Source: a virus
Taxonomy: Duplodnaviria; Caudoviricetes
Strand: one strand, 5' to 3'
Virus record (IMG/VR): IMGVR_UViG_3300033463_000085
Span: 1 to 64,000 of that record
DNA: 64,000 nucleotides
The notes under the pieces were generated by a model. That model had not been told where the DNA came from and did no database searches. It was given only the letters and a program-made list of their open reading frames with translations. Positions 3,950 to 35,690 of this stretch are shown here, piece after piece. Positions within the stretch are counted from its first letter, which is position 1. Each line of letters opens with the position of its first letter. The position numbers were made by a program, and so were the translations under genes.

Positions 3950-6653
<2,704 letters not shown>

Positions 6654-6695: not shown

Positions 6696-9440
6696 TTACT
6701 GTTGGCCTCCGGCGGGTTGTCCGCCGCTGTCGAATCGGCTCCACAATTCCGCCGTCTTTTCCTCTACCTCCGGCCAGTATTCGGAGTTTATGTTGCCGCC
6801 GGAGCTCGTATTCGCTCCAGTCAGCGTCGGGAATTCGTATTCAACAACGAGGAGCAAGCAGGTCTCGCATTTGCTGTTGTAGTACCAGTTGTAGCCGCCT
6901 GACATCTGACGTGCTATCGGCGGAACTTCGCACTCCCATATCTCACGGCCCTCGGTGTTTATGCTCCATATATCCTCGTTGATATAGCTGGGCATCAAGG
7001 CGAGACGCGTGGCGTATCTGTCGTTGTATGCGGCGGCGTATGCGTCGGCCCTCGCCTCTTCCGCCCGTCTTATCGCCGCTTGCCGCGCTTCCCAATTCTC
7101 AATCTGTCTTGCCGCCTCGTATGCTGCGTTGTATGCGTCGTTTGCGGCGGCGTATGCTTCGTCGAAAGCGTCGCCAGCCGCATCCCACGCGTCGGTATAT
7201 TCCTTTTTCTTCGCGGCAATCTCGTCGGCCTTTGCATCGGTTATGGCATCCAACTCATCGCCCATCTCGTCGCTCAACCCGTATCTATTCGTCCAATACT
7301 CATCCCATATTGCATCCGTGACATCATATCTTTCGTTCTCCCTCGTCCTAATGGCCGCGTCCCTGCTTGACCGGATGGAGTTTATCTGCGTGTTTGCAGA
7401 GCTTCGAATGGACGACTTGCTCGCGTTGGCGGCGCTCTGCATGTCTGCGATGCTGGCGCGAACCTCGCGTAGAATTTCCGCTTTTTCGTCCTTGTCCTCC
7501 GTGGCATCAATCCGTATGTTCGCCTCGATGCTGGCACCCTCGATACTTCTGATTAGCTGGAGGTCGACTTCCGCTATCTGCGCGTCTCGCGAAGCCTCAA
7601 CAGCCTCAATCTGTTCTTGGAATTGCTCGGTTATTTCGGCAATATCAGAATCGCATTCTGCAACGGCTGCATTGTACCTCTCGATAAATTCGGAATAGAC
7701 TCTCCTATATTCGTCAAAGTAGCGGTCGTATATCGCGTCAATGGCTTCACATTCACTCTGACAGGCGAGGCCTTTCTTCGTGAAGTTTACGACGCGCCAC
7801 TGCCATTTGTTGCCTTTGAAATAGTGCCGACCGTCAAAATGCTCCAAATCGTCGTATGTTGTTTTAGTCTCGTTCTCCGAAACCTTGATAATGCCTTTTA
7901 CACTCTTGATCTTGCCAACCGTGTATCGTGTGCCTAGACGGACAAAGAATTTCGTGCCGCCTCCGGCAATCGCGTAGTTGTATTGGTATGGCTGCGGATA
8001 ACTCTCTGGGTCGCCATTGCCGTACGCAACCCTCGATGCGTCGGCGTTGCCGTTGCCGAATCCGCCAAGCGTGTGGTGGTGTGCGCCGCAATCAACATTC
8101 ATTCGGTAGTCTTGGTATGTGACATAGCTCTGGACATTCCATGTCGCATAGTATGGCTGCCGCGACATACCGACCTTCCACGAACCCTTGTAGAGCATCA
8201 TGTCGCCGTCGGCGAACAGTCGCTCCAGAACGCGCCACATGTACGGCATGAATATGTGTGCGTTGCGATAGTTCATGAAGTTGTCAATTATATGGCTTTT
8301 TAGGGCGAGGTTCCTGATGTCATGGTCTACGCCAGTGCATTCTTCGTGCCCGTCGCAGTTTATCCTGTATTGACACGATTCCTTTACCGTGTCGTAATAC
8401 GCCTTGTTGTTAAGGTGCATCGTGCCGCGATACAGGAATTCCGCATCGTCCAATGCCTTGTCGTAGTTTTCGGAATTCGCATCCCACGCCCTACTGTATT
8501 CGGCGCTGGCCTCGTTTATGAATTTTTCTGTTGCGGCGTCTATTTCCGCAACGCGCCTGTAGTATCTGTAGTTGTTTTCCGATATGGCCTTGGCACAGGC
8601 GTCCTTTGCCCTCTGTATTCTTTCGCCCTTGTTGTCCTCGTCATCCTCCTCGATTGCCTCTATTTCCGCATCCCGCGCCTCTTCAAGGGCCTCGTTTGCC
8701 GAGTCAAGGCTGTCCTTTAGCTGGTTCTTGGTTGCCGTGTCGCTCGACTGCCTCTGGCGATATTGGTCGTATGACGCGTTATACTGGGCCGAAATCCTGT
8801 CGTTCTCCGCCACATATGCGTCGTAGGCCGAACTTCGCGTTTCGCTATATATGTCCTCCGCCTCCTCGTCCGCTTCGTATCTTGCATCGCCCGCATTGTC
8901 GTCTATGTAGAACTCCTCCCACGATGTGTCGTTCGATTCCTCGGCATATCCTCCTTTCTCAATCGTCTGTGCCGGAAAGGCCATGTCTTTGCGCCAAGGC
9001 AGGAGAAATCCGTCGCCAATGACACCGCTGTTGCTGCCGCTCCCGCTTGCGGATACAATAACGCTGGATTTGGACGAGGAATGGTATATCACCACGCCGT
9101 TTGAGAATATGTTAAATATCCCTAAAACATCCAAGTAGCCCAGAAGCGACTCGACTATCGAATCCCACGCGCCGTTTCCGCAAATCTTCTGTATAGTTTC
9201 GCCATAACGAAGGCGGCCTGTCGTTTCGCTCAAGAAGTCGTCTTTCTGTCGCGGGAAATCGCGCTCTATGACGGCCTCCTCAAGAAACGCCTCGTCCTCG
9301 CCACGGAATATGCGCTTCTGATTGCGCAACGGAAGAATGCTGCCGTCTATTCGTATCTTGCGCAGGGCTTCGGCGGGGACGAAGCGGTATTGCTCCTTCG
9401 AATCCAACATTTCGCAAAGCCTCCCTACGAATTGTACCAA
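6696..9440 (-). CDS. Large hypothetical virion protein with acidic helical repeats
   Basis: 914-aa ORF in tail operon; two long A/E/D/Y/R-rich helical segments. Confidence 0.75.
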   Translation of the reverse strand: MVQFVGRLCEMLDSKEQYRFVPAEALRKIRIDGSILPLRNQKRIFRGEDEAFLEEAVIERDFPRQKDDFLSETTGRLRYGETIQKICGNGAWDSIVESLLGYLDVLGIFNIFSNGVVIYHSSSKSSVIVSASGSGSNSGVIGDGFLLPWRKDMAFPAQTIEKGGYAEESNDTSWEEFYIDDNAGDARYEADEEAEDIYSETRSSAYDAYVAENDRISAQYNASYDQYRQRQSSDTATKNQLKDSLDSANEALEEARDAEIEAIEEDDEDNKGERIQRAKDACAKAISENNYRYYRRVAEIDAATEKFINEASAEYSRAWDANSENYDKALDDAEFLYRGTMHLNNKAYYDTVKESCQYRINCDGHEECTGVDHDIRNLALKSHIIDNFMNYRNAHIFMPYMWRVLERLFADGDMMLYKGSWKVGMSRQPYYATWNVQSYVTYQDYRMNVDCGAHHHTLGGFGNGNADASRVAYGNGDPESYPQPYQYNYAIAGGGTKFFVRLGTRYTVGKIKSVKGIIKVSENETKTTYDDLEHFDGRHYFKGNKWQWRVVNFTKKGLACQSECEAIDAIYDRYFDEYRRVYSEFIERYNAAVAECDSDIAEITEQFQEQIEAVEASRDAQIAEVDLQLIRSIEGASIEANIRIDATEDKDEKAEILREVRASIADMQSAANASKSSIRSSANTQINSIRSSRDAAIRTRENERYDVTDAIWDEYWTNRYGLSDEMGDELDAITDAKADEIAAKKKEYTDAWDAAGDAFDEAYAAANDAYNAAYEAARQIENWEARQAAIRRAEEARADAYAAAYNDRYATRLALMPSYINEDIWSINTEGREIWECEVPPIARQMSGGYNWYYNSKCETCLLLVVEYEFPTLTGANTSSGGNINSEYWPEVEEKTAELWSRFDSGGQPAGGQQ

Positions 9441-10426
9441 GGAACATTCGTCACGCGGAATCGGTTGTCGGCCGTTGGCACATTGTCTGAAAGATTGTAG
9501 ATTGAAATGTAGGTGTTGTCGTCGTCGTTTTCCTCCGCGTCCTCCGCATCAATCACCTCGACCTCGAACTCTTCCTCCTCGTGCGTTATGTGGACCACAA
9601 CCTCCGTGAAGTCCGAAATATCCGTGTCGTCGGCGATGTCGAGAGTTTCCCTGCCGAATATGAAATGCTGCTTCGTTAGATACGGCTTCCATTCCGCATC
9701 CTTTGAATTCACATTGTCGTCGGTCTTGTATGTTATGGAAAGCGTAGAATAGTCGTCCCTCGTAATTGTCTGGCCGGACGTGTACCATTGGAACGCACTC
9801 CTGTTTTTTACGGTATTGCCGTCCCTGTCCTCGCTCTCCGTGATGTATATGGAGCCCACCTGCATAACACCGCCGCTAAATACGGTCTTGACCGCATCGC
9901 CCGTGCTTTTCGTTGTGACTTCGCAGAGGGGCCAAGGGGCCATCCTTATCCTCACAGACCAAGACAGCGCGGCGTGTCCGTCCAATGTCGTCGAACTTGC
10001 GTCCGCAATCTCCGGGTCTGGAATCTTGTACCATTGGTATATTTCGTTTCCTTCATCGTCCGTCGCAGCGTCGTTGGCCGGGATGAAGGCAAGCGTCTGT
10101 TGCGATTTCGTCCCGAAATACGACCGAAGGGACAGGCATCCGTGCGGCATGTAAATCTGCCACTCTCCGGCGTTCGGGTTTGGGTGCTCTGGGTCTGTGT
10201 CGTATGAGAACCACCTTATCGCAAACGGCTTCAACGATTCCTTTGTGACAGTCGTTGCCGCGACCCCTCCGGGAGTGCCGTTTATCCTCGTCCCGTTCGG
10301 CGTGTAGTCGACGGTTATGTTCTTTCCGGCGATTATTCGGCTCGCACGAAGCTCGCGGATGATGTCTCGGGCGAAGTTCGCGGAAAGGCCCTCGCCGACG
10401 ATAGGGGTGTTTGGCGTCCTGCGCAT
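9425..10426 (-). CDS. Hypothetical tail protein
   Basis: 333-aa ORF in tail operon, overlapping next gene. Confidence 0.7.
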   Translation of the reverse strand: MRRTPNTPIVGEGLSANFARDIIRELRASRIIAGKNITVDYTPNGTRINGTPGGVAATTVTKESLKPFAIRWFSYDTDPEHPNPNAGEWQIYMPHGCLSLRSYFGTKSQQTLAFIPANDAATDDEGNEIYQWYKIPDPEIADASSTTLDGHAALSWSVRIRMAPWPLCEVTTKSTGDAVKTVFSGGVMQVGSIYITESEDRDGNTVKNRSAFQWYTSGQTITRDDYSTLSITYKTDDNVNSKDAEWKPYLTKQHFIFGRETLDIADDTDISDFTEVVVHITHEEEEFEVEVIDAEDAEENDDDNTYISIYNLSDNVPTADNRFRVTNVPWYNS

Positions 10427-22218: not shown

Positions 22219-23622
22219 CTACGCCTTGAGCGAGCGTATGTAGTCCACGAGCCGGGTGCGCTCCGCTGCCGAAAGTCCGTCCACAATGCGCCGCGCCTCC
22301 TTGAATCCGGCGGAACAAGGCGGCTCTTTGGCCGACAGGCCGGAGCCAGAGGGCGGACGCGCTTCAAGTATCGCGCTGTCCGGCGGTTGTTCTGCGGCAA
22401 TGTCTATCACATCGGGGAGCGCGTCGGCCAGCTGCTGCCTGTGCGCCTCCGCGTCGCCGTGGAAATAGTGCGATGTCATCATCGGGCTGGCATGGCCGAC
22501 TATGCTCTGCACATAGGCGAGGGGCATTCCTCCGTTGCCGCACAGGCTAACGAATGTGTGCCGGAGCGAATGGAAGCCTACGACGGTCACCTTGCGCGAA
22601 TAGCCGTCCACGGTCGCTGTCGTGGCAATCCCGGCCTTTTCGAACAAGTCTTGTATATTGGAAACGAGCGAGGAGTTGTCGCGTTCGTATTGCTCCGCCG
22701 TGACCGGAAGCACATACGGCGACCCCTCCGTGCGCGGCGCGTCCTTGAGGACGGCCTGGAGCGACGGATGGAGGCTCATCGTCACGAGCGTTCCGGCCTT
22801 GGCCGTCTTGCGCGGGAGGACATGGATTAGACCGCGCCCAAGGTCTATCGAATCCCATTTGAGGAGGGCGCAGTCGCCGAGCCGGAGGCCTGTGTAGATT
22901 CCGAGCGCGAACAGGATGCGCATTTCGCCCTCAAGCAACGCGCACACCTTCGCAAGCTCCTCGACGGACAGCGCACGCCGTCCCCTCTGCCGCTTGTCGC
23001 CGCGCCGTTCGAACTCGGCCCAAGCGTCGTCCTTGGCGCGTATCTCGCGGGCGAGCTTCTTCCACATCAGCCGCATGAGCGCCAGATATTTGTTGTGGGT
23101 GTTCGCCGAGAACTTCTCGCCGATGCCGTGAAGGAACTTCGCCGCCGTCTCTCTATTCAACTGCCGAAGCTCGCCGACATCCGGCGCGTTGGCCTTTAGC
23201 CATTCGACGAGCCGACCGAACTGGCTCTCGTACATATCCATCGTCGCCGATGATGTGCGTCCCATCCGCTCGCGGAACAGGGCGAACGCGTCCTTGAACG
23301 AGAGGGCTGGCTTCTCGTCCTCGTATCGCTGGATTTCCGCCTTTACCCCGCCGAGCCGGACGATTGCGTTCTGTAGACTTGCGGCCTCGTCGCGGAGGAC
23401 ATAGTGGCGCATCTCCTTGGCAAGCCTCTCCTCCGCCTGTCGCTTGTTCGAGGTCTTGAGGGATTTTGTGTGAATCTTTCCGGCGACAATCCATCGCCCA
23501 AAGTAGGTGTTGCCCCGCTTTACCAAGGAACCCTTGCCCTTTGCCCGCTGCTTCTGCGGCGATTTGTCCCCGCGTTCCTTCGAGGGTGCGGGGCGTGAAG
23601 TCGTGTTTTCGCTCTTGCGCAT
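22219..23622 (-). CDS. int: Tyrosine integrase
   Basis: TGLRLGD, FHSLRHTF, VGH...MTSHY catalytic R-H-x-x-R-H-Y residues; start may be 23643. Confidence 0.95.
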   Translation of the reverse strand: MRKSENTTSRPAPSKERGDKSPQKQRAKGKGSLVKRGNTYFGRWIVAGKIHTKSLKTSNKRQAEERLAKEMRHYVLRDEAASLQNAIVRLGGVKAEIQRYEDEKPALSFKDAFALFRERMGRTSSATMDMYESQFGRLVEWLKANAPDVGELRQLNRETAAKFLHGIGEKFSANTHNKYLALMRLMWKKLAREIRAKDDAWAEFERRGDKRQRGRRALSVEELAKVCALLEGEMRILFALGIYTGLRLGDCALLKWDSIDLGRGLIHVLPRKTAKAGTLVTMSLHPSLQAVLKDAPRTEGSPYVLPVTAEQYERDNSSLVSNIQDLFEKAGIATTATVDGYSRKVTVVGFHSLRHTFVSLCGNGGMPLAYVQSIVGHASPMMTSHYFHGDAEAHRQQLADALPDVIDIAAEQPPDSAILEARPPSGSGLSAKEPPCSAGFKEARRIVDGLSAAERTRLVDYIRSLKA

Positions 23623-23674
23623 TGTGGCGCAATATGATACCATATATTCCGCATTAGGTAAAGGGCGAAAACTG

Positions 23675-25268: not shown

Positions 25269-25282
25269 GCCAAACCCGTCAA
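25269..25282 (-). promoter_or_regulatory. Late-gene motif variant TTGAC-N5-TGGC
   Basis: TTGACGGGTTTGGC, 26 bp upstream of GT2 start. Confidence 0.5.
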
Positions 25283-25821
25283 TCTTCGACCTCAACCATG
25301 TCGGCGAGCATCTTCTGGGTGTTGGCGTATGCCTTGTCGAGAAGCCCCGGACGGAGGATGTCGGCGTTGAAGTGTCCGCCGCGACCCTTGCCGCTCACGA
25401 CGGAATCGACGATGTGCTCGATTACGTCTATGAGGTTGATGTCCTCCGGCGGCGCATCCTCGATGTGGTGGCGCTCGTAGCGCGTGTGGTAGTGCGCGGC
25501 CCAATCGCTCAACCGCCAGTCTGACTCGCGGATTTCGCCCTTCTGCTTTGCGGAGAAGTGGTTGTAGTATTCGTCGAAGAATTCCATCTTCGTCCAGTCG
25601 TGCTTCGCGCCGCGCTGGCGTATGATTTCCGCCATGCGCTCCATGCCGCGCCGGACATCGCGCCTGTGGGCGACGACGGCCTCGCGCAGCTCCTCCTTGC
25701 CGACGGCGTGGGTCGCGGTCGAGGCGGACGCGGACGGCGTGGGGTGGATGACCATGCGCTTGCGCTCGTCTGATGTCATTGCGAGCGCGTTGGCGACGAT
25801 GGGATTTGTCGATGTCAGCAT
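25279..25821 (-). CDS. DUF5662/HD-superfamily protein with NPIV leader
   Basis: KHDWTK...HY...RHHIE...IDVIEHIVD motifs. Confidence 0.65.
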   Translation of the reverse strand: MLTSTNPIVANALAMTSDERKRMVIHPTPSASASTATHAVGKEELREAVVAHRRDVRRGMERMAEIIRQRGAKHDWTKMEFFDEYYNHFSAKQKGEIRESDWRLSDWAAHYHTRYERHHIEDAPPEDINLIDVIEHIVDSVVSGKGRGGHFNADILRPGLLDKAYANTQKMLADMVEVED

Positions 25822-25961
25822 TTGTCGCTTTCCTTTCCTTGTGGCGGCGGCGCGTCGTGCGCGGCCTTAGGCAGTCCCGAGAGCGGGACGCAAACATGGT
25901 TCTTGAGCCAGGCGGCGGCCTCCGCGTGGGTGGGACATTCCCTGTCCGCGCATTTCGTCAT
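25815..25961 (-). CDS. Small hypothetical protein
   Basis: 48-aa ORF filling the gap with overlapping start/stop. Confidence 0.4.
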   Translation of the reverse strand: MTKCADRECPTHAEAAAWLKNHVCVPLSGLPKAAHDAPPPQGKESDKC

Positions 25962-26731
25962 GGCATCCTCTCCCAGCGCGAGCGGACGGAATACCGCTCG
26001 TCCATCCACCTGCGGAATCCGGCCACGGCGAATGCGTTGTCGTTTATCGAGAATCCGGCGAACTTGTCGGCGCGGCCTTGCTGCATGAGGTCGAGCGTGT
26101 TGCGCGGGAACTTCCTGTCCATTCGCCACACGAGCTTGCGTTTGCCGCAGTTGCGGAGGAGCCATGCGTTGGCGAACAGCGAGTGGAAGTTTGCGCCCAC
26201 ATCGCCGTCCTTGAGGGTGAGGGCGTAGTCCGAAAGCTCCTGCACGATACGCCAGTCGTCGGCGTGGAAGAATGTGTTGAAGTGCTGCGAGAAGTCCATC
26301 GCGGGCATCCCGTGCTCAAGGAGCGCTTCGCGGGCTAGATACAGCGACACATCGAAATTGTTCCCCCCCTCCGCCATCTGCTCGCGGGCGAGGAGCATCG
26401 CGTTCTTCCAATACTGCGGGGCCGTGTCGAAGTCTCTCGGACGGGTGAGGAAATGGTCGTCGGCGGAGAACAGGAATTCACCCTCCACCAATCCGGCCTT
26501 GCAAGCCGCTATAACCTTCGCGCCGAGGTTGCGAGTCTTGCGTTTGCATGGGTCTGGCATCTTGAGGACTTCGCCGGAAAACCAGTCGGGCGCGTAGCCG
26601 ACGACGACGGGCTCGACATTCACCTCGCCGTCCGAGCCGCGAGCGTATCTCTCAAGGGAGCGGAGCGACCAGCGGAACTCGATGTTTCCGTTGGTGGAGC
26701 CCTCCCCCATGACATAGAGAATCTTCATCAT
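25958..26731 (-). CDS. Stealth-like (CR2) sugar-phosphotransferase/glycosyltransferase
   Basis: EFRWSLRSLERY...VVVGYAPDWF, FLFSADDHF; true start MMKILYV at 26731. Confidence 0.6.
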   Translation of the reverse strand: MMKILYVMGEGSTNGNIEFRWSLRSLERYARGSDGEVNVEPVVVGYAPDWFSGEVLKMPDPCKRKTRNLGAKVIAACKAGLVEGEFLFSADDHFLTRPRDFDTAPQYWKNAMLLAREQMAEGGNNFDVSLYLAREALLEHGMPAMDFSQHFNTFFHADDWRIVQELSDYALTLKDGDVGANFHSLFANAWLLRNCGKRKLVWRMDRKFPRNTLDLMQQGRADKFAGFSINDNAFAVAGFRRWMDERYSVRSRWERMP

Positions 26732-27450
26732 ATCGCGGCCTCCCTGTAGCATTCGCGCAGCATCCCCATTCGGGCGTATCTGCGCTGCTGGCCCACCGCG
26801 CTCGTTATGCCGCCGAGGTCGGCCTGTTCCGCGCAGCATGGGAACGAACAATACATCTTGAGGGACGGGTCGCGGCGGTTCATGTAGTAGAAATACTGGT
26901 CGGAAAGGCACATCTTGCCCTCGCCTCTCGCCGCCGCCTCCTGGAAGTAAAGCCACGCCTCCATGCCTTTTCGGGAGAGCGCCCAGCAAGCCGTTGAGCG
27001 CAAGTCCGTAAACCTCTTCCAGTAGCCGTTCACGAGCGGGGCCTTCATGAGCGCGTCGCATTCCTCGTCCGTCGCCTTGCCGCGAACGACCCAATCGAGC
27101 ATGGCGATGTCGTAGTCGTCCGGCAGAGCCTCCACAATCCTTCCGAGCAGGGTCTTGTCCTTGAGGAAGCGGGCGTCGTCCTCCAGTATCAGGACGCTCC
27201 TCTTGCCAAGCTCGTATGCCGTGCGGACGATTCTGTTGTGGTTCAAGGTGCAGTCCATCCAGCCGCCCTTGCACATCCGCGTGTGGCGGACATTGGCTTC
27301 GATGACGCGGACGTATGGGTTTTCGCATCCCCAGAAAGGGACGAACGAGAAGCCGACGCGCATCGTCTCGCGCTCAAGCATCTCGGCGTTCTGCGGCTTC
27401 TTCGAGAAAAGAACGGCCGCCTTCATGTCGAACCTGTCCCAGCAGTTCAT
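26728..27450 (-). CDS. Glycosyltransferase family 25
   Basis: CTLNHNRIV...SVLILEDDARF, STACWALSRKG, SDQY, CAEQ. Confidence 0.75.
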   Translation of the reverse strand: MNCWDRFDMKAAVLFSKKPQNAEMLERETMRVGFSFVPFWGCENPYVRVIEANVRHTRMCKGGWMDCTLNHNRIVRTAYELGKRSVLILEDDARFLKDKTLLGRIVEALPDDYDIAMLDWVVRGKATDEECDALMKAPLVNGYWKRFTDLRSTACWALSRKGMEAWLYFQEAAARGEGKMCLSDQYFYYMNRRDPSLKMYCSFPCCAEQADLGGITSAVGQQRRYARMGMLRECYREAAI

Positions 27451-27559: not shown

Positions 27560-28606
27560 TTAGGCCTCGCCCGACGAGGACGAGCTGGACGAGCTGGAGC
27601 TGTCGGTCGCCGGGGTCTTGGCCGAGACGAGACGGACGATCTTGGTCGGCTGAATGAGCTTCGCGCCGAACAGGCTCTCGCAGGTCGCCACGGTGTCGCC
27701 CGTGCGCCAGTCGCCGCCGCGACGCCACTGGAGGACGAGGCCGGAGGCCGGGTCGCTCGAAGTGCCGAGGTCGCGGTAGAGCTCGGGGTCGACAATCTCG
27801 ATGGTGCGGGAGCCGACGGCGATGGCCGTCTCGGGGATGATTGCGCCGAGAAGGTTCGTGTCGTTCAGCTCGTCCATCTCGATGACGGCCTTGTAGCCGA
27901 GGAGGGCCGGAATCGTGCCGTTCTGCACGGCCTCCGGGCTGCCGTAGGAGTGCGCCTCGAGGTCGGCGAGGAGTTCCGCGTACTTCTCGGGACGGAGCGC
28001 GAGGACGCAGCGGCGGATTGCGAGGTCGTTGTTCACGGCCGCAACGCGAATCTTCGCCGCGAGCTTCTTCGTCAGCTCGCCGTTGCCAAGGACGAACTCG
28101 TTGGCGGCGGAGAACTTGAGCGTGCTCTTGGTCTCGATTTCCTCGCCGTCCTCGTTCACGAAGGTGGTCGTGTCGGTGCCGCTCGTCGGGATGTTCTCCT
28201 TGGTGATGAGGCCGCCGACGATGTTGGCGATGCGGCGACCGACAGCCTCCGAGGAGGAGTTGGCCGTCTTGAGGAGCAGGGCCTTGTTCGTGCCGGACGG
28301 AAGCATGGTGGCCTTCGCCTCGGAGAACTTGAACGAGTGCTTGATGTGCTTGTTGCAGCCCATCGAGACGAACTTCACCTCGCCGTCGTAGTGACCGTAG
28401 TTGTTCGTTTCGCGGTCGTAATCCTTCGCCTCACCGTTGATGATGTAGGGGATGAGGATGGAGCCGCCAGCGGTCATGGTGTCGGGCGAGAAGTCCGTGG
28501 TGAACTGCGAAATCTTCACGATGTCCTTGCGGAGCATCATGATTGTCTGGTTTGCGACGTAGCGCAGACCGGGCGATGCGATTGAACCGAGGTCGGGTTT
28601 ACCCAT
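27560..28606 (-). CDS. Major capsid protein with C-terminal poly-Ser tail
   Basis: 348 aa directly after protease/scaffold; strongly biased codons; ends in ten Ser then GEA. Confidence 0.85.
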   Translation of the reverse strand: MGKPDLGSIASPGLRYVANQTIMMLRKDIVKISQFTTDFSPDTMTAGGSILIPYIINGEAKDYDRETNNYGHYDGEVKFVSMGCNKHIKHSFKFSEAKATMLPSGTNKALLLKTANSSSEAVGRRIANIVGGLITKENIPTSGTDTTTFVNEDGEEIETKSTLKFSAANEFVLGNGELTKKLAAKIRVAAVNNDLAIRRCVLALRPEKYAELLADLEAHSYGSPEAVQNGTIPALLGYKAVIEMDELNDTNLLGAIIPETAIAVGSRTIEIVDPELYRDLGTSSDPASGLVLQWRRGGDWRTGDTVATCESLFGAKLIQPTKIVRLVSAKTPATDSSSSSSSSSSGEA

Positions 28607-28661: not shown

Positions 28662-29972
28662 TTACTTGTCCGCCATTTCCTCAAGGGCCTTGATTTCCTT
28701 TTCGGGGTCGCCTCCGCAAGACGCGAGCGCATCCTTCATGTTGATGACGGTGGGCTTCTTGGCGGCGGCGTTCTCGACGCGGGTGTGCGTCTTGACGGGC
28801 TCACCCGGCTTCTTCGGGGTCTGCGCGTTGGCGACGGCCTTCTTCGCGACGAGGCGGAAGTTGGCGACGGTCTTCTGCGCGGCCTCGGGGTTGGCCTTGA
28901 ACTCCTCCTTGAGGGTTTCCTTGGCCTCTTCCGGGATGACATCCTCGTTCTGCGTGACGAAGGTGTTTGCCTCGTTGTCGAGCTTTTCGGCCTTGAGGGT
29001 TTCCAGCTCGTCGGCCTTGCCCTGGAGGTCAGCGTTTGCGGTCTGGAGGTCGCCGCAGTTCTGGACGAGCCTGTTCACGGCCTCGACAGTCTCTTCGGGA
29101 GTGCTCTTCGTGTCGATGCCAAGCGCGTTCTGCACCTGTTCGACAACGCCACACTTCGCGACGAGGGCATCGAAAGCCTGCTCAACATCTTCATCCTTCG
29201 CGTCGGCGGGGAGTCCGAGTTTTGCACGAATATCCATGTCGTGTGTTTCCTTTTTTGGTTTGTGGGTTGTGATTTCCGGCTCCTGTTTCGGAGTCGGCGT
29301 TGCTGCCGTGCCTTTGTTCTCTTCGGCGTTCGCGGTTGCGCTTGGCACCTTTGCCGTCACGCCATCCGCGTTTGCGGCGGTGGCTCCCGGCTGTGTCTTA
29401 TTTCCCGCTTGGCTGTTGAGCATCGGAGCGACAGGTAAATTGGGGCGGTTCGTGAGGCCGACGGAAACCAGCTCCTCTGGGCGGTTGTCGTCGTCGAGCG
29501 TCCACGCGGCTGAAACGAATCTGTAGACCTTGCCGTTGATTGTTTCCGCGCCGAGGGAGGTCGGCTCTATTTCTGCCATGAGGCCCTTGGCCTCGTCCTT
29601 GAATAGGCGGGCGACCCATGCCATCGCCCTCGTGTCCGTGGAAAGCTCGGAGGAGTGGTCTGCGTCCACGAGGACTTTCCTGTTGGGGTCGAATTTGGCG
29701 ATGAGCGCGTCTATGGCTTTCTCGTCCACCTTCTGGACGACCTCGCGGCGTCCGTCGCGGGCCGTCGGGTCCTCGACCTCCTCCTCAACCGTCTGGCCGT
29801 CCACGACCTTGGATATGACGCGCTTGCCGTCCTGTGCGGTTTCGTCCTCGACCCATTGCGGATATTCGCCGACGGGGGCGAGCTGTATGACGAGGGGCTT
29901 GCCTACCTCTGCGCTCTTCTCCGCAGGTAGGTCGAATGCGACCGCGTTTGTTATGACCTTCTTCGTCGTCAT
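28662..29972 (-). CDS. Mu gpI-like prohead protease/scaffold
   Basis: IQLAPVGE, VDADH, YRFVSAAW, SVGLTNRPNL then low-complexity scaffold region. Confidence 0.88.
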   Translation of the reverse strand: MTTKKVITNAVAFDLPAEKSAEVGKPLVIQLAPVGEYPQWVEDETAQDGKRVISKVVDGQTVEEEVEDPTARDGRREVVQKVDEKAIDALIAKFDPNRKVLVDADHSSELSTDTRAMAWVARLFKDEAKGLMAEIEPTSLGAETINGKVYRFVSAAWTLDDDNRPEELVSVGLTNRPNLPVAPMLNSQAGNKTQPGATAANADGVTAKVPSATANAEENKGTAATPTPKQEPEITTHKPKKETHDMDIRAKLGLPADAKDEDVEQAFDALVAKCGVVEQVQNALGIDTKSTPEETVEAVNRLVQNCGDLQTANADLQGKADELETLKAEKLDNEANTFVTQNEDVIPEEAKETLKEEFKANPEAAQKTVANFRLVAKKAVANAQTPKKPGEPVKTHTRVENAAAKKPTVINMKDALASCGGDPEKEIKALEEMADK

Positions 29973-30148: not shown

Positions 30149-31891
30149 CTACAGCGCGGACATCCAAGCGATTGCGTTCTTGAGTCCGGCCACGGCCTTT
30201 TCAAATTCAGCGAGAAAAGGTTTCGCCTTGGCAATGACTTCCTTTGGAGTTTCCCCCTCAATTCTTGGTCCAAAACTGACATTAAGACCGGAATACAGAC
30301 CGTCTCCGAATGTATAGGCGGTCACATTGCCGAACTGCTTTTTGGTCATCGCGTTCGTGACGACTGCGTTCGCAACCTTGAATTCGCCGCGCTGCGTGTG
30401 GGCGCGTGGCGTCATCGTGAAGCCCGTCTTGCCTCTGCCGTAATCCACGAAGGCGAAAATGTAGTCCGGCTCGAACTTTGCCTTGAGCTGGTCGAGCGCG
30501 GGACGCGCCTTGCGGTCGGCGAGGATTGTGATTTTGCCGTTGCCACGCTCGATGAGGCTGGTCACGCCATCCGTGTAGCCCTCAAGCGAGCCTTGAGGGA
30601 ACTTCGTCTGGATGTTGGACTTGATGTAGCGAATCAACGGCTCGTTGGCGTTCTTGGCGACCGTGGCGTTCAGGGCCTTTTGGACGATTGGGTTTGTGCT
30701 TTTCATTTCGTAGTTCCTTGTTGAGTTTTTCGCTTTGGACGTGTCGTTTGCGGTGGAGGCGTTGGCATTTGCGGCCCGAAGGTGTCGTATGTCCATAACC
30801 CATGTACCGCCCTTGTCGAATCTTACTCTCGCCCGCTGGGGTTCTTTTGGATCATCCTCGAGCCATTCAATCGTCCCCGTCCCCATCGAGCCAAACTTTG
30901 AGGGTATTTCAACAACCCTCTGCCCCTCTTTGAACTTGGCGTTGGCGACAGCCTTGCGGATGCCCTTGGCCCACGATTCAGATACATTCGGGTCGATTCC
31001 GGCGCGTTCAAGAGTGCGGCGTGCGACGACCTTGCACGATATGCCTTCCTCGTCCTTGATTTCCTTGAACACCTCCTGCGCGTCCTCGCGGTATTCATTT
31101 CCGGCGAGGATGCAAGCGCCGGACATCGAGGGCGTGACAACGAACCATTGATACTTGTTCTTGTAGTTGAAATTCGCGGCCACGGCGTTAGGCATTACCA
31201 CGCGAAGAACCGCGCCCAACTGCTCTAGCTTCGCGCCGAGGCGCTTGGCAACAGTCGCCACATCGTGCTTTGCCTTTTCGTGGGCTGCGTCCGCATCCAT
31301 GTCTGATAGGTTGCGCTTGCACACCTTCCAGGCGGCAGCTTTCTTCTTGAGGGCTTCGACGAGGGCCGGGTCGGGCTTCTCGGCCGTGACGATTACATGG
31401 AAGTCGTCAATCCACTTGTCGTTTGCCGTGGCAGCGCTCCGGGCAAGCGGGTCCGCCACCTTAGCCTGCGCATTGCCAATGAGGTCTACGATGCACCCCG
31501 AGCCGAAGCGGCGATGGGCCTCCTTCTCGGCGGCCTTGTAGTTTGGGGCTTCAATCACTACGGAGCGGCCCGATTTTGTCGTCACGGCGAACTTGGCGTT
31601 CACATAGGGGTTGCCCTTGACGGTGAACAGAACGCCGTCGGCTCGCACATCTGCGACTTCTAGCTTGTCGCGGGGGAATCCCGGCTCTGCCATTATGGCG
31701 TCTGGCAAGCGGCCCTTGACGCCTTTCTTGTCGCGGAACTCGACCCACACGAACCACGCGTCCACCTTGGCGGACAGCTTGGGGCACTTGCGGTTGATTT
31801 CCCCGACGAGGACAGACGGCCTCCTGTTGGGGTCGTAGGTTTTCGTCGTGGCGTTCAGCGCCTTCTGCACTATCGGATTTTTGCTTGTCAT
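30149..31891 (-). CDS. Multidomain polyprotein-like protein, putative internal head cargo
   Basis: 580 aa; NPIVQKALNAT twice; short domains separated by AN/NA linkers; internal RBS+ATG at 30706. Confidence 0.75.
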   Translation of the reverse strand: MTSKNPIVQKALNATTKTYDPNRRPSVLVGEINRKCPKLSAKVDAWFVWVEFRDKKGVKGRLPDAIMAEPGFPRDKLEVADVRADGVLFTVKGNPYVNAKFAVTTKSGRSVVIEAPNYKAAEKEAHRRFGSGCIVDLIGNAQAKVADPLARSAATANDKWIDDFHVIVTAEKPDPALVEALKKKAAAWKVCKRNLSDMDADAAHEKAKHDVATVAKRLGAKLEQLGAVLRVVMPNAVAANFNYKNKYQWFVVTPSMSGACILAGNEYREDAQEVFKEIKDEEGISCKVVARRTLERAGIDPNVSESWAKGIRKAVANAKFKEGQRVVEIPSKFGSMGTGTIEWLEDDPKEPQRARVRFDKGGTWVMDIRHLRAANANASTANDTSKAKNSTRNYEMKSTNPIVQKALNATVAKNANEPLIRYIKSNIQTKFPQGSLEGYTDGVTSLIERGNGKITILADRKARPALDQLKAKFEPDYIFAFVDYGRGKTGFTMTPRAHTQRGEFKVANAVVTNAMTKKQFGNVTAYTFGDGLYSGLNVSFGPRIEGETPKEVIAKAKPFLAEFEKAVAGLKNAIAWMSAL

Positions 31892-32029: not shown

Positions 32030-34351
32030 TCACTCGCTCCTCGGTTGGCCTTTTATGATGTAGGCGGACACGATTTTCAGCGTCTTGCTTTTCGTGTCGG
32101 GAACCGCCTCCTGGACGGAAAGGTGTCCGTTGATGCGCTTGCGGATTTCAATTACGGGCGACGGCTTGTTGTCGCCGCCCTTGTATTCCTTCGAGAACAC
32201 CTGCTTGCCGTTCGCGTCCTTTAGGATGTTCACGCTGTCGAAGTGGTGCATGACATATCCGAGCCGCCCGAGGTGGCTTGCGTCCGCCATCGTCGTGTCG
32301 GCCTCGCCGTTTTCGCCGTGCCGCTTGTCGATGTGGCGGACATGGTTGCCCTGAAGCTCAATCTTCCATCCGGCGACATCTACTCCGAGCTTGTCCTTGA
32401 CCTCCTTGGCGAGCGCTTGCGGGGCCTTGCATATCTCGATGCTGGACTTGTTGCGCGTTTCGTCGTCGGCCTTCTGCATCCTCTCCACGAAATCCACGAC
32501 ATTCTTGTTCGTCGAAGCCTTGTATTCCGCGATGCTGTGCTGCTCCTCCGGCGAGTGCCCGTCCTTGTCGGCGGTCTTGCTGACCCCGTGGGTTTCGCAA
32601 TGCGTGCATCCGCCGTCTTTGCGCGTCTCGTAGCCGCACACCTTGCAGGGCGGATTGTGGCCGTTCGCCACGACGGCATTGGGAGCGGGCGCTGCGCCCG
32701 TGGGCTGCTTTGCAATCTGCTCGCCGAAAGCCTCGTTCATCTGCTCGGCGATGACCTCCGCCATAGCGGGGTCGTCTGGAATGAGGGAATCAAGCTCAAG
32801 GCGGAGCTTAGTTGCGGCCTCGGCCCGCTCCTCCTCCGGCATGGCGAGGATGGCGTTCAGCCTGTCGGCCACGGCCTTGAAGTCGTCCTGCAACGACGCG
32901 GCAAGTTCGCTCGCCGCGCCAGACGCGCCAGAAACGCCCTCTGCGGCGTTTGAGGCCACGGGGGGTATGGTTGCCCCTCCGGCGGCCTCCGGCGCTTTCT
33001 GCGTTGGCGTAGGCGGCGTTTTCGAGGGGTCGGGGACGACGATGCCGCGTCCGGGATTGCCGTTCAGCCCGAAACCGCCCCCGTCCGGCTCCTTTTTCTT
33101 GCGAATCGTGAAGCCGGAGAGCTGCGACAATTCGTTTTCGTCCATCTCGTATCCGGCGTTCGAGAACTTGCCCGCAAGCTCCGCCACCTCGTCGGGCGTG
33201 AGCTTCGCGGATGTGTCGAGCTGGAATTCCGCGAGGACTGGCTTGCCCTTGAAGTCCTTGCAGTCCTTGATGAGCTGTTCGCAAAGCTGCTTGTGGAACA
33301 CATTTGACAGGAGGCGGGTGTCGGCGCGGACAATCTGCTTCCACACCTCCATCTGCGCGTTTCCGGCGAGCGTTCCGCTTCCCGATTCCGCAAGGGATGT
33401 GAGCGTTCCGCCAGTCGAAAGAAGCACAAACAGCTTCATCTGATGCTCGATGAATTCCGTAAACGGATTCGTGCCGCGTGATTCGGAGGCATAATCCACC
33501 TCCGAGCCGAATGGAATAACGCCGGAGCGGCCCTCAAACACATTCTCCGCAGCCTGTAGGTAGTCTTTGACCTCTTTTTCAGATGTCAGCTCCGGCATGG
33601 TGATTATGACGGGCGGGAGGCCGTATGTTTCAAGGAAACGGCTCCAGTCGCGCTCGCCGACGGACGCGCGGAGGAATATCATGAGGGCGGGCCAGTCAAT
33701 CTGCCTCTTGCGTGCGACGACAATCGTATCGTCCGGCGGAAGGACGGTCATCTTCCCGTCCGATGCGGACGGCTCGGCGTAGGAGGATGCGTCAGGGTTC
33801 CACAGCCATTTGCGCTCGCTCCTGTCGTAGCACAGGTTCCAATGGTCGAGGCATTCGAGATGGTTTGGCATTCCGTCCGTGCCGAAGTAGGTGTTGAGGA
33901 CGGAGAATCCACGGAACGCGGAAAGCGCGAGGTGCTCGAACGCCTCGGGGAGGTTGTCGATTTTGGCTACGGCCTCTTCGAGGAATTCTATCTGCTCCTT
34001 GACGAGCCCCTTGTCGGCGTTCCTGTTCAGCCGTTCGTTGGAGCGGACTATGCGCCAGTCGAGTTCGGCGATTGCGGAGCATCGGCGCGTGACGCAGGTA
34101 AGGAATGTGGCGTCGCAGTTCTCGATTTCGTTGTAGAGGAACTGGAGCTGCGAGAAGTTTCCGCGCCGCGCCCAATCGTAGATTGTCTGCGCCCGCTTGG
34201 CGTCAATCTGCCACAGCGGGTTCATCGCCTCGAGCATGAGCGACTGTTCCGTCTTTTGCAGACGGCCCGCTATCTTTGCGGCGAACGAGCGCAAGAATCC
34301 CGGCGTCTGCGGATTCTGTGGCGCGGACGATGGTTTCTGTTGTTCTGTCAT
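32030..34351 (-). CDS. DUF935 (Mu gp29-like) portal fused to zinc ribbon and C-terminal PBECR3-like nuclease
   Basis: DWSRFLETYGLPPV, SGSGTLAGNAQ portal motifs; CKVC...CTHC; RHIDKRHGENGEAD...KRING...EAVPD...IVSAYI. Confidence 0.85.
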   Translation of the reverse strand: MTEQQKPSSAPQNPQTPGFLRSFAAKIAGRLQKTEQSLMLEAMNPLWQIDAKRAQTIYDWARRGNFSQLQFLYNEIENCDATFLTCVTRRCSAIAELDWRIVRSNERLNRNADKGLVKEQIEFLEEAVAKIDNLPEAFEHLALSAFRGFSVLNTYFGTDGMPNHLECLDHWNLCYDRSERKWLWNPDASSYAEPSASDGKMTVLPPDDTIVVARKRQIDWPALMIFLRASVGERDWSRFLETYGLPPVIITMPELTSEKEVKDYLQAAENVFEGRSGVIPFGSEVDYASESRGTNPFTEFIEHQMKLFVLLSTGGTLTSLAESGSGTLAGNAQMEVWKQIVRADTRLLSNVFHKQLCEQLIKDCKDFKGKPVLAEFQLDTSAKLTPDEVAELAGKFSNAGYEMDENELSQLSGFTIRKKKEPDGGGFGLNGNPGRGIVVPDPSKTPPTPTQKAPEAAGGATIPPVASNAAEGVSGASGAASELAASLQDDFKAVADRLNAILAMPEEERAEAATKLRLELDSLIPDDPAMAEVIAEQMNEAFGEQIAKQPTGAAPAPNAVVANGHNPPCKVCGYETRKDGGCTHCETHGVSKTADKDGHSPEEQHSIAEYKASTNKNVVDFVERMQKADDETRNKSSIEICKAPQALAKEVKDKLGVDVAGWKIELQGNHVRHIDKRHGENGEADTTMADASHLGRLGYVMHHFDSVNILKDANGKQVFSKEYKGGDNKPSPVIEIRKRINGHLSVQEAVPDTKSKTLKIVSAYIIKGQPRSE

Positions 34352-34390: not shown

Positions 34391-34404
34391 GGCGGCTGCG
34401 TCAA
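34391..34404 (-). promoter_or_regulatory. Late-gene motif variant TTGAC-N5-CGCC
   Basis: GGTTGACGCAGCCGCC, 40 bp upstream of portal start. Confidence 0.55.
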
Positions 34405-35690
34405 CCGAACCTCCTCCTAATGCCGACGGGCATCGCGATTATGCGCTTGCGGGCGGACGCCTTGATGTTGTCCTCCTGCGACATGCGGCCCGAGTCTATG
34501 CCGTGGTTGTCCCTGTCGGGAAGCCGCTCCTTCGGGGCTCCGTCCTTGTAGGTGTCGGATTCGTAGTGGGACAGCTCGTTCCAGCAGAAGGGGCAGCGCT
34601 CCGGGTCGCATACGAGCTTGGTGCGCGAGCGCATCCAGTTCACGCCTACCTCCGGCCAGTCGGGGGCCTTGTAGCAGGGCTTGAGGTTCGCGCCGAGGTG
34701 GTTTATGTTCTGATACCATCCGGCGGGGGCCGTGTCGGCGATTATCGGCGTGTCCTTGAGGCCCTTGCGGCAAATCATCTCGTAGACGGAATCGTAGTAG
34801 GGGTGGTGAAGGACGCCCTCGTCGAAATAGTAGAGGATGTCGCGGTCGTGGTCGTAGTATGTCCCCGTGAGGACTGTCGGGTCGTTCACGATGCCGAAGT
34901 CGAGGCCGTATCGCTTGTCTCGCCACGACGCTATCTGCTCGTCGGTAATCCGCTCGGCCTTGAGGTTGGCGAATATCTCGCCGCCCGTTCCGGTGGCCTC
35001 GCCGAGGAACACATGGCGGTAAAGCTCGAAGTTGGTCTTGCGCATGTGCTCGATGCGCGTCAGCACCGACGGCGGAAGCCAGCCCATCTCGATTATGTCG
35101 CGGTAGTCGGTGCGGTAGACCTTGCGTCCCGGAAACGGCTTGCACGCCTCGGAGTTTATCCAGTTGGCCGTGGACTTGGGCGGGTTGTAGGTGATTATCG
35201 TCGTGAAGGGGCGGTCGCTTCGCTGCATCGAGATTATGACATTCTCGATTTCGTCCCAGCTTGAGAATTCGTCCGACTCCTCGAACCACACGAGGCCCGT
35301 GTAGCCGAACGCGGGCTTCTTGGACTTGTGCTTGCGAGGGTCGTCGAGGCCGAGGAATGTTATGGTCTGGCCCGTGTCCTTGCGCACGAGGCGGAGCGGG
35401 TCGCCCCGCGTGTCGAACAGGTAGTCGGCGGCGAGGCGGTCTTCGCCGAGGGCGATTTTCAGCTCGTTCAGAACCGACCCCTTGAGGTCGACATGGTGCT
35501 TGCGGAAAACGACGGCGTGGCAGTCCTCGTTTCCGGCTGACGTAGTGCGGCCGCCCGTATATGTCGCCGCGAAGCTGGACTTCGCGCTGTATCGGCCACC
35601 CGGAAACCAAGCCTCCGTCGTCTTGCCCGTCACCATGTCGTTCCACGGCTCGTAGTAGACGGGTGCGATAAGCTGCTCTAGTGGTTTCAT
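34401..35690 (-). CDS. terL: Terminase large subunit (PBSX-like)
   Basis: GGRYSAKSS Walker A variant, WFEE Walker B, TYNPP, YGLDFG, DNHGIDSGR. Confidence 0.95.
   Translation of the reverse strand: MKPLEQLIAPVYYEPWNDMVTGKTTEAWFPGGRYSAKSSFAATYTGGRTTSAGNEDCHAVVFRKHHVDLKGSVLNELKIALGEDRLAADYLFDTRGDPLRLVRKDTGQTITFLGLDDPRKHKSKKPAFGYTGLVWFEESDEFSSWDEIENVIISMQRSDRPFTTIITYNPPKSTANWINSEACKPFPGRKVYRTDYRDIIEMGWLPPSVLTRIEHMRKTNFELYRHVFLGEATGTGGEIFANLKAERITDEQIASWRDKRYGLDFGIVNDPTVLTGTYYDHDRDILYYFDEGVLHHPYYDSVYEMICRKGLKDTPIIADTAPAGWYQNINHLGANLKPCYKAPDWPEVGVNWMRSRTKLVCDPERCPFCWNELSHYESDTYKDGAPKERLPDRDNHGIDSGRMSQEDNIKASARKRIIAMPVGIRRRFG

Follow-up and report, generated by a model that had tools for sequence, protein, structure and literature searches.

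A modular, tag-bearing protein beside the prohead protease gene of an uncultured tailed virus: a candidate head cargo polyprotein

The analysed window comprised 64,000 nucleotides of an uncultured virus (Duplodnaviria; Caudoviricetes) and formed part of a 76.9-kb IMG/VR record (IMGVR_UViG_3300033463_000085) with a CheckV rating of complete. The open reading frame (ORF) under study, P0001, was located on the minus strand at 30149-31891 (ATG at 31891, stop codon at 30149-30151) and encoded 580 amino acids (AA). It was taken as a real gene because its homologues ranged from 94%-identical to distant. The gene order on the minus strand was large terminase, Mu-type portal with a PBECR3 domain, P0001, Mu-I protease/scaffold, capsid protein, sugar-transferase genes, DUF5662 gene, and integrase. 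P0001 was therefore situated among portal and terminase virion genes, a context shared with the phage polyvalent proteins. It consisted of seven small modules joined by Asn-ending linkers and by copies of a reiterated peptide (the tag), and may be a capsid-loaded cargo protein that is cut apart by the adjacent protease.

Modules of P0001 and their shuffling

The structure of P0001 was predicted with AlphaFold2 using an alignment of 58 sequences. The predicted template modelling score (pTM) was 0.30, and confident separate domains could be observed at AA 99-139, 245-300, 310-375, 420-505, and 516-580. The predicted local distance difference test (pLDDT) score was <50 at AA 140-166, 230-243, 378-397, and 508-513. 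The model and the homology breakpoints together resolved seven modules of 41-89 AA each in one polypeptide. An earlier note, made from the sequence alone, had counted about seven small domains and had suggested structure prediction as a check; both the count and the folding as separate modules, not as one unit, were borne out. The features of P0001 are as follows.

31847-31891, minus: tag copy 1, AA 1-15 (MTSK + NPIVQKALNAT); 35.6 bits with a position-specific scoring matrix (PSSM) of the tag
31601-31846, minus: module M1, AA 16-97; poorly modelled, pLDDT 29-55; homology block 1-143 common to P0003-P0006 and P0020
31475-31597, minus: M2, AA 99-139, beta-beta-alpha-beta; pLDDT 93-96; first module of small free proteins (P0043-P0053)
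31421-31474, minus: linker, AA 140-157, ending in AATAN; pLDDT <50; breakpoint pile-up
31196-31420, minus: M3, AA 158-232 (DKWIDDF...); moderately confident helical hairpin with generic hairpin fold matches only, Z <7
31172-31195, minus: linker, AA 233-240, MPNAVAAN; low pLDDT; highest number of breakpoints (24 within a single 10-AA bin)
30962-31171, minus: M4, AA 241-310 (...GNEY-EDA...GIDPN..W); pLDDT 92-97 in the full model; most widespread module, free-standing in many phages
30941-30961, minus: linker, AA 311-317, ending in KAVAN; breakpoints and junction grammar
30776-30940, minus: M5, AA 318-372, possibly SH3-like (AKFKEGQ...); all-beta in the model
30707-30775, minus: spacer, AA 373-395 (AANANASTAN + DTSKAKNSTRNYE); resembles a translated intergenic region, with AAGGAA inside; pLDDT <50
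30644-30706, minus: tag copy 2, AA 396-416 (MKST + NPIVQKALNAT + VAKNAN); PSSM 37.0 bits; possible internal start, ATG 30706
30377-30643, minus: M6, AA 417-505, alpha/beta; pLDDT 71-91 per 10-residue block, mostly 82-91; generic fold matches only, Z up to 7.5
30347-30376, minus: degenerate tag copy 3 with linker, AA 506-515, VANAVVTNAM (degenerate tag at AA 508-515); PSSM 21.2 bits
30152-30346, minus: M7, AA 516-580; also in P0026, P0033, and P0049, and a separate 101-AA tagged gene in the related locus L005

When 1.84 billion representatives were searched exhaustively with HMMER, only 53 relatives of P0001 were retrieved. Each of them had just one to three modules in common with P0001, often reordered, and collinearity was seen only in near-identical proteins. 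In P0007, for instance, the query blocks 407-509, 154-235, and 98-151 were located at 191-292, 15-96, and 364-417, respectively. Homology blocks of M6 could be found in P0007, P0008, P0023, P0025, and P0039, and several modules also occurred as free proteins of 67-93 AA (P0042, P0046, P0051, P0054, P0059). Internal ends of the BLAST alignments piled up at AA 91-100, 141-160, 231-250, 301-320, 371-380, 411-420, and 501-520, and these pile-ups coincided with the Asn/Ala linkers and the low-pLDDT gaps. The comparison of relatives proposed in the earlier note thus revealed modules that are shuffled, with breakpoints at the linkers. The alignments and the model strongly support P0001 as a modular cassette whose modules are shuffled between conserved linkers.

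The module M4 (Y-x-x-Y-V-V...SGWEY-EDA...DP.N..W) was also present in unrelated phages of lower GC content (P0063, L014 at 7965-9092, L016, L018, L021), in single copies and in tandem arrays, with at least four copies in P0063 (521 AA), and without the tag or the Asn/Ala linkers. This small domain is widespread among phages, belongs to no Pfam family, and matches no PDB fold, and its presence in these unrelated phages suggests that the modules are drawn from a general pool of small phage proteins.

Pfam, PHROG, NCBIfam, and PADLOC returned nothing significant for P0001 as a whole or for any module, and the catalogued conflict domains of polyvalent proteins (MuF, ParB-like, methylases, PBECR, ADP-ribosyltransferase, peptidases) were not found in P0001 by the family searches. 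Among the weaker signals, M5 itself gave only a Pfam match to DUF7258 (E 0.014), while the paralogous KFKVGD modules of relatives repeatedly gave weak SH3_12, SH3_15, and Tudor matches below or near the threshold. A tblastn search of P0001 against 50,697 deposited phage genomes produced no match. Foldseek comparison of the full model against PDB and BFVD revealed nothing at E <= 0.001, and the matches obtained with VIA-align were all generic (helical hairpins and alpha/beta sandwiches; Z up to 7.5). When M4 was folded alone (pLDDT 78), no fold match was obtained (best Z 3.5, Foldseek E 2), and the ESM Atlas search yielded only unnamed small proteins. The M4 profile run against PDB sequences led to designer pentatricopeptide repeats with no passing stretch, which was set aside as an artefact.

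Linker grammar, the tag, and their occurrence in neighbouring head proteins

The seven linkers listed in the earlier note could all be located in P0001: YVNA at AA 96-99, ATAN at 154-157, VAAN at 237-240, VANA at 315-318, ANANASTAN at 374-382, KNAN at 413-416, and VANAVVTNA at 506-514. Asn accounted for 17.8% of the linker residues versus 2.6% of the module residues. An AN frequency no higher than expected from composition had been named as evidence against that note's reading; when tested against 5000 composition-preserving shuffles, the NA and AN dipeptides of P0001 numbered 20, well above the 8.7 +/- 2.7 expected (0/5000 shuffles). The count of NA alone was 12 against 4.3 expected (1/5000), and that of ANA/NAN was 6 against 0.8 (2/5000). 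Among 17 phage ORFs, clear NA/AN enrichment could be observed only in P0001 (2.3x), the protease/scaffold (2.2x; 14 versus 6.3), and the short DUF5662 protein (4 versus 1.3).

The grammar of the junctions was assessed from the distinct sequences that precede recognisable module starts across the family. Asn stood directly before DKWIDDF in 15/15 distinct junctions and before [W/F]-N-Y-K-N in 19/19, and N-A preceded the internal KFKVGD starts in 18/22. The residue two before the junction Asn was Ala in 11 of the 15 DKWIDDF junctions and in 15 of the 19 WNYKN junctions (a further 3 had Val), the next residue upstream was often Val, and a second N-A was commonly present five to six residues upstream of the junction Asn (N-A-V-A-x-N). 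These counts strongly support a common Asn-ending grammar of the linkers, typically (V/A)-A-x-N before a module. An SH3-like module that opens a protein starts with M-A-KFKVGD, so that a cut after Asn would yield the N-terminus of the free protein minus Met (A-K-F-K...). Ala at P1' permits such removal of Met (PMC10052503). Free M2 proteins retained a 5-residue prefix ending in Asn (MTATN-, MEVKN-, MIAQN-, MTISN-). N-glycosylation sequons were rejected as a general explanation of the linkers; the sequon N-x-S/T is matched in some linkers by NAT or NAS only, and most junctions read NAV, NAK, or NAA.

The peptide NPIVQKALNAT was found at AA 5-15 (31847-31879) and again at AA 400-410 (30662-30694) of P0001. 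The earlier note had described these two copies, the second behind a ribosome-binding site (RBS) and an ATG at 30706, and had concluded from six synonymous differences in 11 codons that the peptide is under selection. On checking, the two DNA copies differed in codons 1, 2, 3, 4, 5, and 7 of the 11, and 6/6 differences were synonymous, which argues strongly for selection at the protein level. Since the copies differ at six synonymous sites, the possibility that the linkers act as DNA-level recombination signals was rejected for the tag. The description as a twice-repeated targeting peptide needs correction, as a third, degenerate copy is present in P0001 and relatives carry copies between modules.

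Across 63 family proteins, a loose tag pattern gave 81 occurrences, a few of them spurious, with the consensus [C/R]-x-S-[T/R]-N-[A/P]-[V/I]-V-x-[K/N]-A-[L/M]-N-A-x-A-x-N. The tag was positioned either right after Met-x-x-x or between modules, with up to three copies per protein. The tag PSSM was trained on relatives only (P0001-P0006 excluded) and run on the ORFs of >=100 AA in the 76.9-kb genome (36,949 positions). Four outliers were obtained, namely P0001 AA 398 (37.0 bits), P0001 AA 3 (35.6), the N-terminus of the DUF5662 protein (30.4), and P0001 AA 506 (21.2), and the next best score, the background maximum, was 11.6 bits. The portal junction, the protease N-terminus, and a C-terminal site of the scaffold ranked 12th, 13th, and 17th, respectively.

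The second tag copy follows a stretch with the features of an intergenic region. Residues 381-395 (...DTSKAKNSTRNYE) were predicted to be disordered and are coded by an A-rich stretch containing the RBS-like AAGGAA at 30719-30714, which lies 8 nt upstream of the internal in-frame ATG of Met396 (30706-30704). The same arrangement of AAGG and an A/C-rich spacer of ~10 nt also precedes the starts of the capsid, protease, DUF5662, and P0001 genes, and Met396 may be a working internal start. A segment NSTRN[Y/C]E-M-K-S-T-N accompanied the downstream cassette in P0005 and P0006 behind differing upstream modules, and analogous cassette junctions (...NKEGNASM-I-K-S-T-N...) were present in P0034 and P0023. 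Because copy 2 sits behind this spacer with its own RBS, the simplest reading of P0001 would be two tagged cassettes fused in frame, the first consisting of the tag and M1-M5 and the second of RBS-ATG, tag, M6, degenerate tag, and M7.

The tag was N-terminal on P0001, on the DUF5662 protein, and on several relatives. The first 14 residues of the DUF5662 protein (25279-25821) constitute a tag (MLTSTNPIVANALA), which is followed by a low-complexity linker and, from residue 44, by the Pfam DUF5662 domain. Its orthologue in the related locus L002 (18785-19315, 41% identity) was also headed by a tag (MKSTNKVIANAVAAN), and the DUF5662 protein can be regarded as a second candidate cargo. Locus L005, whose protease is 47% identical to that of the window, contained five tagged ORFs around its head genes. 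One of them (2114-2419) lies between the polyprotein and protease genes and codes for a free, N-terminally tagged M7 homologue of 101 AA. M7 is preceded by the degenerate VANAVVTNAM in P0001 and by a full tag at the same place in P0026. The peptide thus appears to behave as a portable tag, a conclusion that these distributions strongly support.

The genes surrounding P0001 and two motif sites within them are listed below.

34401-35690, minus: large terminase
32030-34351, minus: Mu-type portal with a C-terminal PBECR3 domain (Pfam E 3e-10)
32663-32683, minus: PNAVVAN junction, portal AA 557-563, separating the portal core from the zinc-knuckle and PBECR3 extension
30149-31891, minus: P0001, modular polyprotein
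28662-29972, minus: Mu-I-type prohead protease fused to scaffold (PF10123, Mu-like_Pro, E 8e-24; phrog_328, E 7e-23); next gene downstream of P0001
28550-28561, minus: YVAN, capsid protein AA 16-19; weak candidate site, alone not above chance
27560-28606, minus: probable major capsid protein
25279-25821, minus: DUF5662 protein
22219-23643, minus: tyrosine integrase, just downstream of the head and glycosyltransferase genes

In locus L002, the gene order was identical to that of the window, with a 773-AA mosaic relative in the position of P0001. A MuF domain (Pfam Phage_Mu_F) was found neither in P0001 nor in the portal, and P0001 is only a positional analogue of MuF/SPP1 gp7. The earlier note had pointed to similar motifs in the scaffold and portal, and the portal PNAVVAN and several scaffold sites were indeed present. 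In the protease/scaffold, TAAN|A and SATAN|A occur in a variable linker that connects the protease part to the scaffold part; SATANA was conserved in the 57%-identical protease of L002 while its surroundings vary, and the counterpart in L005 has DAANA. The C-terminal part of the scaffold contains TVAN|F, conserved in L002, and AVAN|A. The portals of L002 (6837-8693), L005 (1-1020), and L026 (6863-8920) end at the equivalent of PNAVVAN (...PAANKA[I/V]PN), whereas the window portal runs on past PNAVVAN-G into a Cys-rich knuckle and PBECR3. As the related portals stop there, the extension looks like a further module attached through the same kind of joint. The linker within the protease/scaffold, the C-terminal part of the scaffold, and the portal-cargo junction are places at which prohead proteases commonly cut. 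In the capsid protein, A18 and N19 of the YVAN site were invariant in three capsid proteins of 38-46% identity, and L026 has FMAN.

Proposed processing in the head, alternative explanations, and known systems

The proposed mechanism begins with seven independently folding modules taken from a pool that the phage lineage would shuffle freely. The modules would be linked by two reiterated joints, a short Asn-ending linker and a helical peptide of ~17 residues (S-T-N-P-V-V-x-K-A-L-N-A-x-A-x-N), and both the peptide and the linkers would be recognised by the adjacent Mu-I-type protease/scaffold. The peptide would carry the protein into the assembling procapsid, the protease would cut after Asn residues and free the modules inside the head, and the freed modules would exit with the DNA at infection. 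Judged from sequence, model, and analogy, we give an even chance to P0001 being such a capsid-loaded head cargo polyprotein. The earlier note had likewise proposed that an Asn-directed protease cuts a modular cargo into injected effectors; this is the best supported of the readings considered. Its modular cassette (by shuffling and AlphaFold) and its Asn grammar at the protease/scaffold and portal sites stand, while we infer that cuts fall after Asn, that the modules enter the head and leave it with the DNA, and that they act as effectors. A wider version, in which the tag loads any bearer into the procapsid and an Asn-P1 Mu-I-type protease splits shuffled mini-proteins into injected effectors as a general cargo-loading system of this phage lineage (probably infecting gut or rumen Verrucomicrobiota/Kiritimatiellia), appears rather doubtful. 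The injected mini-proteins would most plausibly be anti-defence or host-takeover factors.

Several observations weigh against a cleaved head cargo. Flexible linkers rich in Asn and Ala could simply remain uncleaved, and P3/P4 are not uniform within P0001 (YVN, TAN). The pattern [AV]xN in P0001 was not enriched beyond the composition of its Asn-rich linkers, so it was dropped as a strict site and the claim was limited to Asn at P1 with mostly small upstream residues. The junction statistics were drawn from related sequences and are not fully independent. No module resembled a known effector, anti-defence, or structural protein in the family and fold searches, and a cleavage specificity of Mu-I-type proteases was not found in the literature searched. 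Two loci in metagenome-assembled genomes (MAGs), with proteases 40-45% identical to that of the window, were devoid of strict tag matches, and L026 has no gene between portal and protease.

The alternative that fares best is an uncleaved multidomain virion protein of 'polyvalent' type, in which the Asn/Ala stretches serve as spacers and the peptide as a docking motif for the scaffold, portal, or capsid interior. Such a string would enter the head whole and might also be ejected whole, and small domains on flexible linkers would thread the tail easily. The head-gene context, the beads-on-a-string model, and the tag lying between modules and not only at N-termini are all compatible with it, as are variable architectures of the kind described for phage polyvalent proteins (PMC5512222). 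It leaves unexplained, however, why Asn is invariably the last residue before modules, why free M2 proteins carry an M-x-x-x-N prefix, and why the same motifs recur at the portal-cargo junction and within the linker of the protease/scaffold, and domains characteristic of the described polyvalent proteins were not detected in P0001. We consider this explanation unlikely.

A late cytoplasmic protein set that is never packaged, acting in host takeover, anti-defence, or as assembly chaperones, would owe its position among the head genes to expression timing only, and the role of the peptide would be to bind a factor of the host or phage or to label sites for a cytoplasmic protease. Tagged ORFs found elsewhere than between portal and protease in L005 and L002 (behind the capsid gene and past the integrase) would fit this possibility, as would the M4 relatives in unrelated phages without tag or Asn/Ala linkers. 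It is nevertheless quite improbable, given that the slot before the protease in the window, L002, and L005 is that of the packaged MuF/gp7-type proteins in Mu- and SPP1-like phages (PMC5512222), that the motif is common to the protease/scaffold and the portal junction, and that cytoplasmic action would not account for one tag on DUF5662 and other unrelated proteins. P0001 could also be a string of decoration or adhesin modules on the outside of the capsid (Hoc-like), with the peptide as its anchor and with shuffling driven by selection for attachment to host or environmental surfaces. This would suit the many SH3-like modules and rapid shuffling in relatives and, in L005 and L004, the tagged SH3-led ORF directly after the capsid gene, where decoration genes are often located, but it is very improbable, as most modules are small alpha or alpha/beta folds and not Ig-like or typical decoration folds, the tag is also present on the DUF5662 protein, and the motif is common to the internal scaffold and the inner C-terminal extension of the portal.

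By sequence and defining domains, P0001 belongs neither to the T4 capsid targeting sequence (CTS) proteins nor to the giant-phage A-x-E substrates or the polyvalent proteins. By analogy, it would work like the T4 CTS internal proteins and the giant-phage ejection proteins, and it overlaps the polyvalent-protein concept. The T4 internal proteins IPI, IPII, and IPIII bear an N-terminal CTS that is cleaved by the prohead protease gp21 at (L/I)-x-E. Similarly, a short N-terminal peptide is common here to otherwise unrelated small proteins near the head genes (by analogy, with no homology), a head-protease site is proposed just behind the P0001 tag, and the cargo would exit together with the DNA. 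In contrast to T4, the window protease is of the Mu-I type (PF10123) and not of the gp21 type (S77), the proposed P1 residue is Asn and not Glu, the tag recurs between modules, and the cargo units are concatenated and shuffled; there is no sequence homology.

Encapsulin cargo-loading peptides and microcompartment encapsulation peptides are short helical peptides with a flexible linker on unrelated shell cargo, and the encapsulin shell has the HK97 fold. The P0001 tag is likewise predicted to be a short helical peptide with a flexible linker on unrelated proteins. It has no sequence similarity to them, the shell here is a phage capsid, and the binding between tag and shell is putative.

In giant phages (SPN3US and the phiKZ group), propeptides of head and ejection proteins are removed and destroyed, as measured by mass spectrometry (PMC10052503, PMC5694885). 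The SPN3US prohead protease gp245 cuts after A-x-E (P3-P1) with Val preferred at P4 (PMC10052503). The P4-P1 pattern V/A-A-x-E there resembles V/A-A-x-N here, a single substrate has several sites, and P0001 is likened to the giant-phage substrates, which are head-internal proteins. The fixed residue in P0001 is instead Asn, the fragments would be folded modules, and cleavage is only proposed. Iyer et al. 2017 (PMC5512222) describe phage polyvalent proteins, with 2 to 15 domains of variable architecture in one phage- or plasmid-encoded polypeptide, and MuF/portal-effector fusions, and their account includes the PBECR3 domain present in the window portal. P0001 shares with them a multidomain, variable architecture beside portal and head genes, but its modules are very small (41-89 AA) and without catalogued domains or a detected peptidase domain of its own, and its joints are conserved, reiterated peptides and linkers, a feature absent from the searched passages of PMC5512222 (0 occurrences of 'linker').

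If the proposal of a processed head cargo is true, it would reveal a new, after-Asn cleavage specificity for the Mu-I prohead proteases, a family that has received little study, together with a short, transferable capsid-targeting tag. It would also show that double-stranded DNA phages can use a processed polyprotein to deliver sets of small proteins, as RNA viruses and retroviruses are mainly known to do, and the modules of this uncultured phage group would represent a ready list of candidates for injected effectors. With the grammar of tag and site, cargo genes could be sought in related genomes, and foreign proteins could be packed into capsids.

The phage lineage and minor features of its genome

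Scans of metagenomes and IMG/VR viral contigs for relatives of the protease and capsid yielded only about six contigs, and the lineage is rare. Relatives of the protease with 40-50% identity (L024-L027) were present in MAGs labelled Verrucomicrobia UBA1731, Kiritimatiellia (horse faeces), and Faecalibacterium prausnitzii, the last a bin that may be mis-binned. These labels hint at gut or rumen hosts of the Planctomycetes-Verrucomicrobia-Chlamydiae (PVC) group for the phage lineage. The protease profile gave no match among PDB sequences. In L026, an SH3-led ORF ending in SSNPVVNAAM was found between terminase and portal.

Within the protease/scaffold ORF, Met246 (ATG 29237-29235) is preceded by a typical RBS pattern, and the sequence MDIR[A/V]KLGLPA that starts there is conserved in L002, which suggests a nested scaffold product like that of Mu I/Z. 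The capsid protein (27560-28606) ends in a run of ten Ser at its C-terminus, and its relatives in L002 (12317-13396) and L005 (3707-4726) end with TGETGETG-type repeats. Glycosyltransferase genes were located downstream of the capsid gene in the window, L002, and L005 alike. In L005, the integrase (7993-9195) is likewise positioned after the head genes, and more tagged small ORFs occur beyond it (9214-9960, 9988-10395). At least one tail-fibre gene (3960-6641) was present farther downstream in the window, on the same strand as the integrase. The first ~200 codons of the minus-strand ORF at 25958-27328 (456 AA) are rich in Arg, Pro, and Gly, and its PHROG match is confined to AA 202-454; translation probably begins close to the internal MMKILYV. 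The sequence 'AAAGG' with an A/C-rich spacer of ~9-11 nt and ATG was common to the well-placed starts at 31891, 28606, 29972, 25821, 42657, and 37842, and may represent a ribosome-binding or late-leader signature of the lineage.

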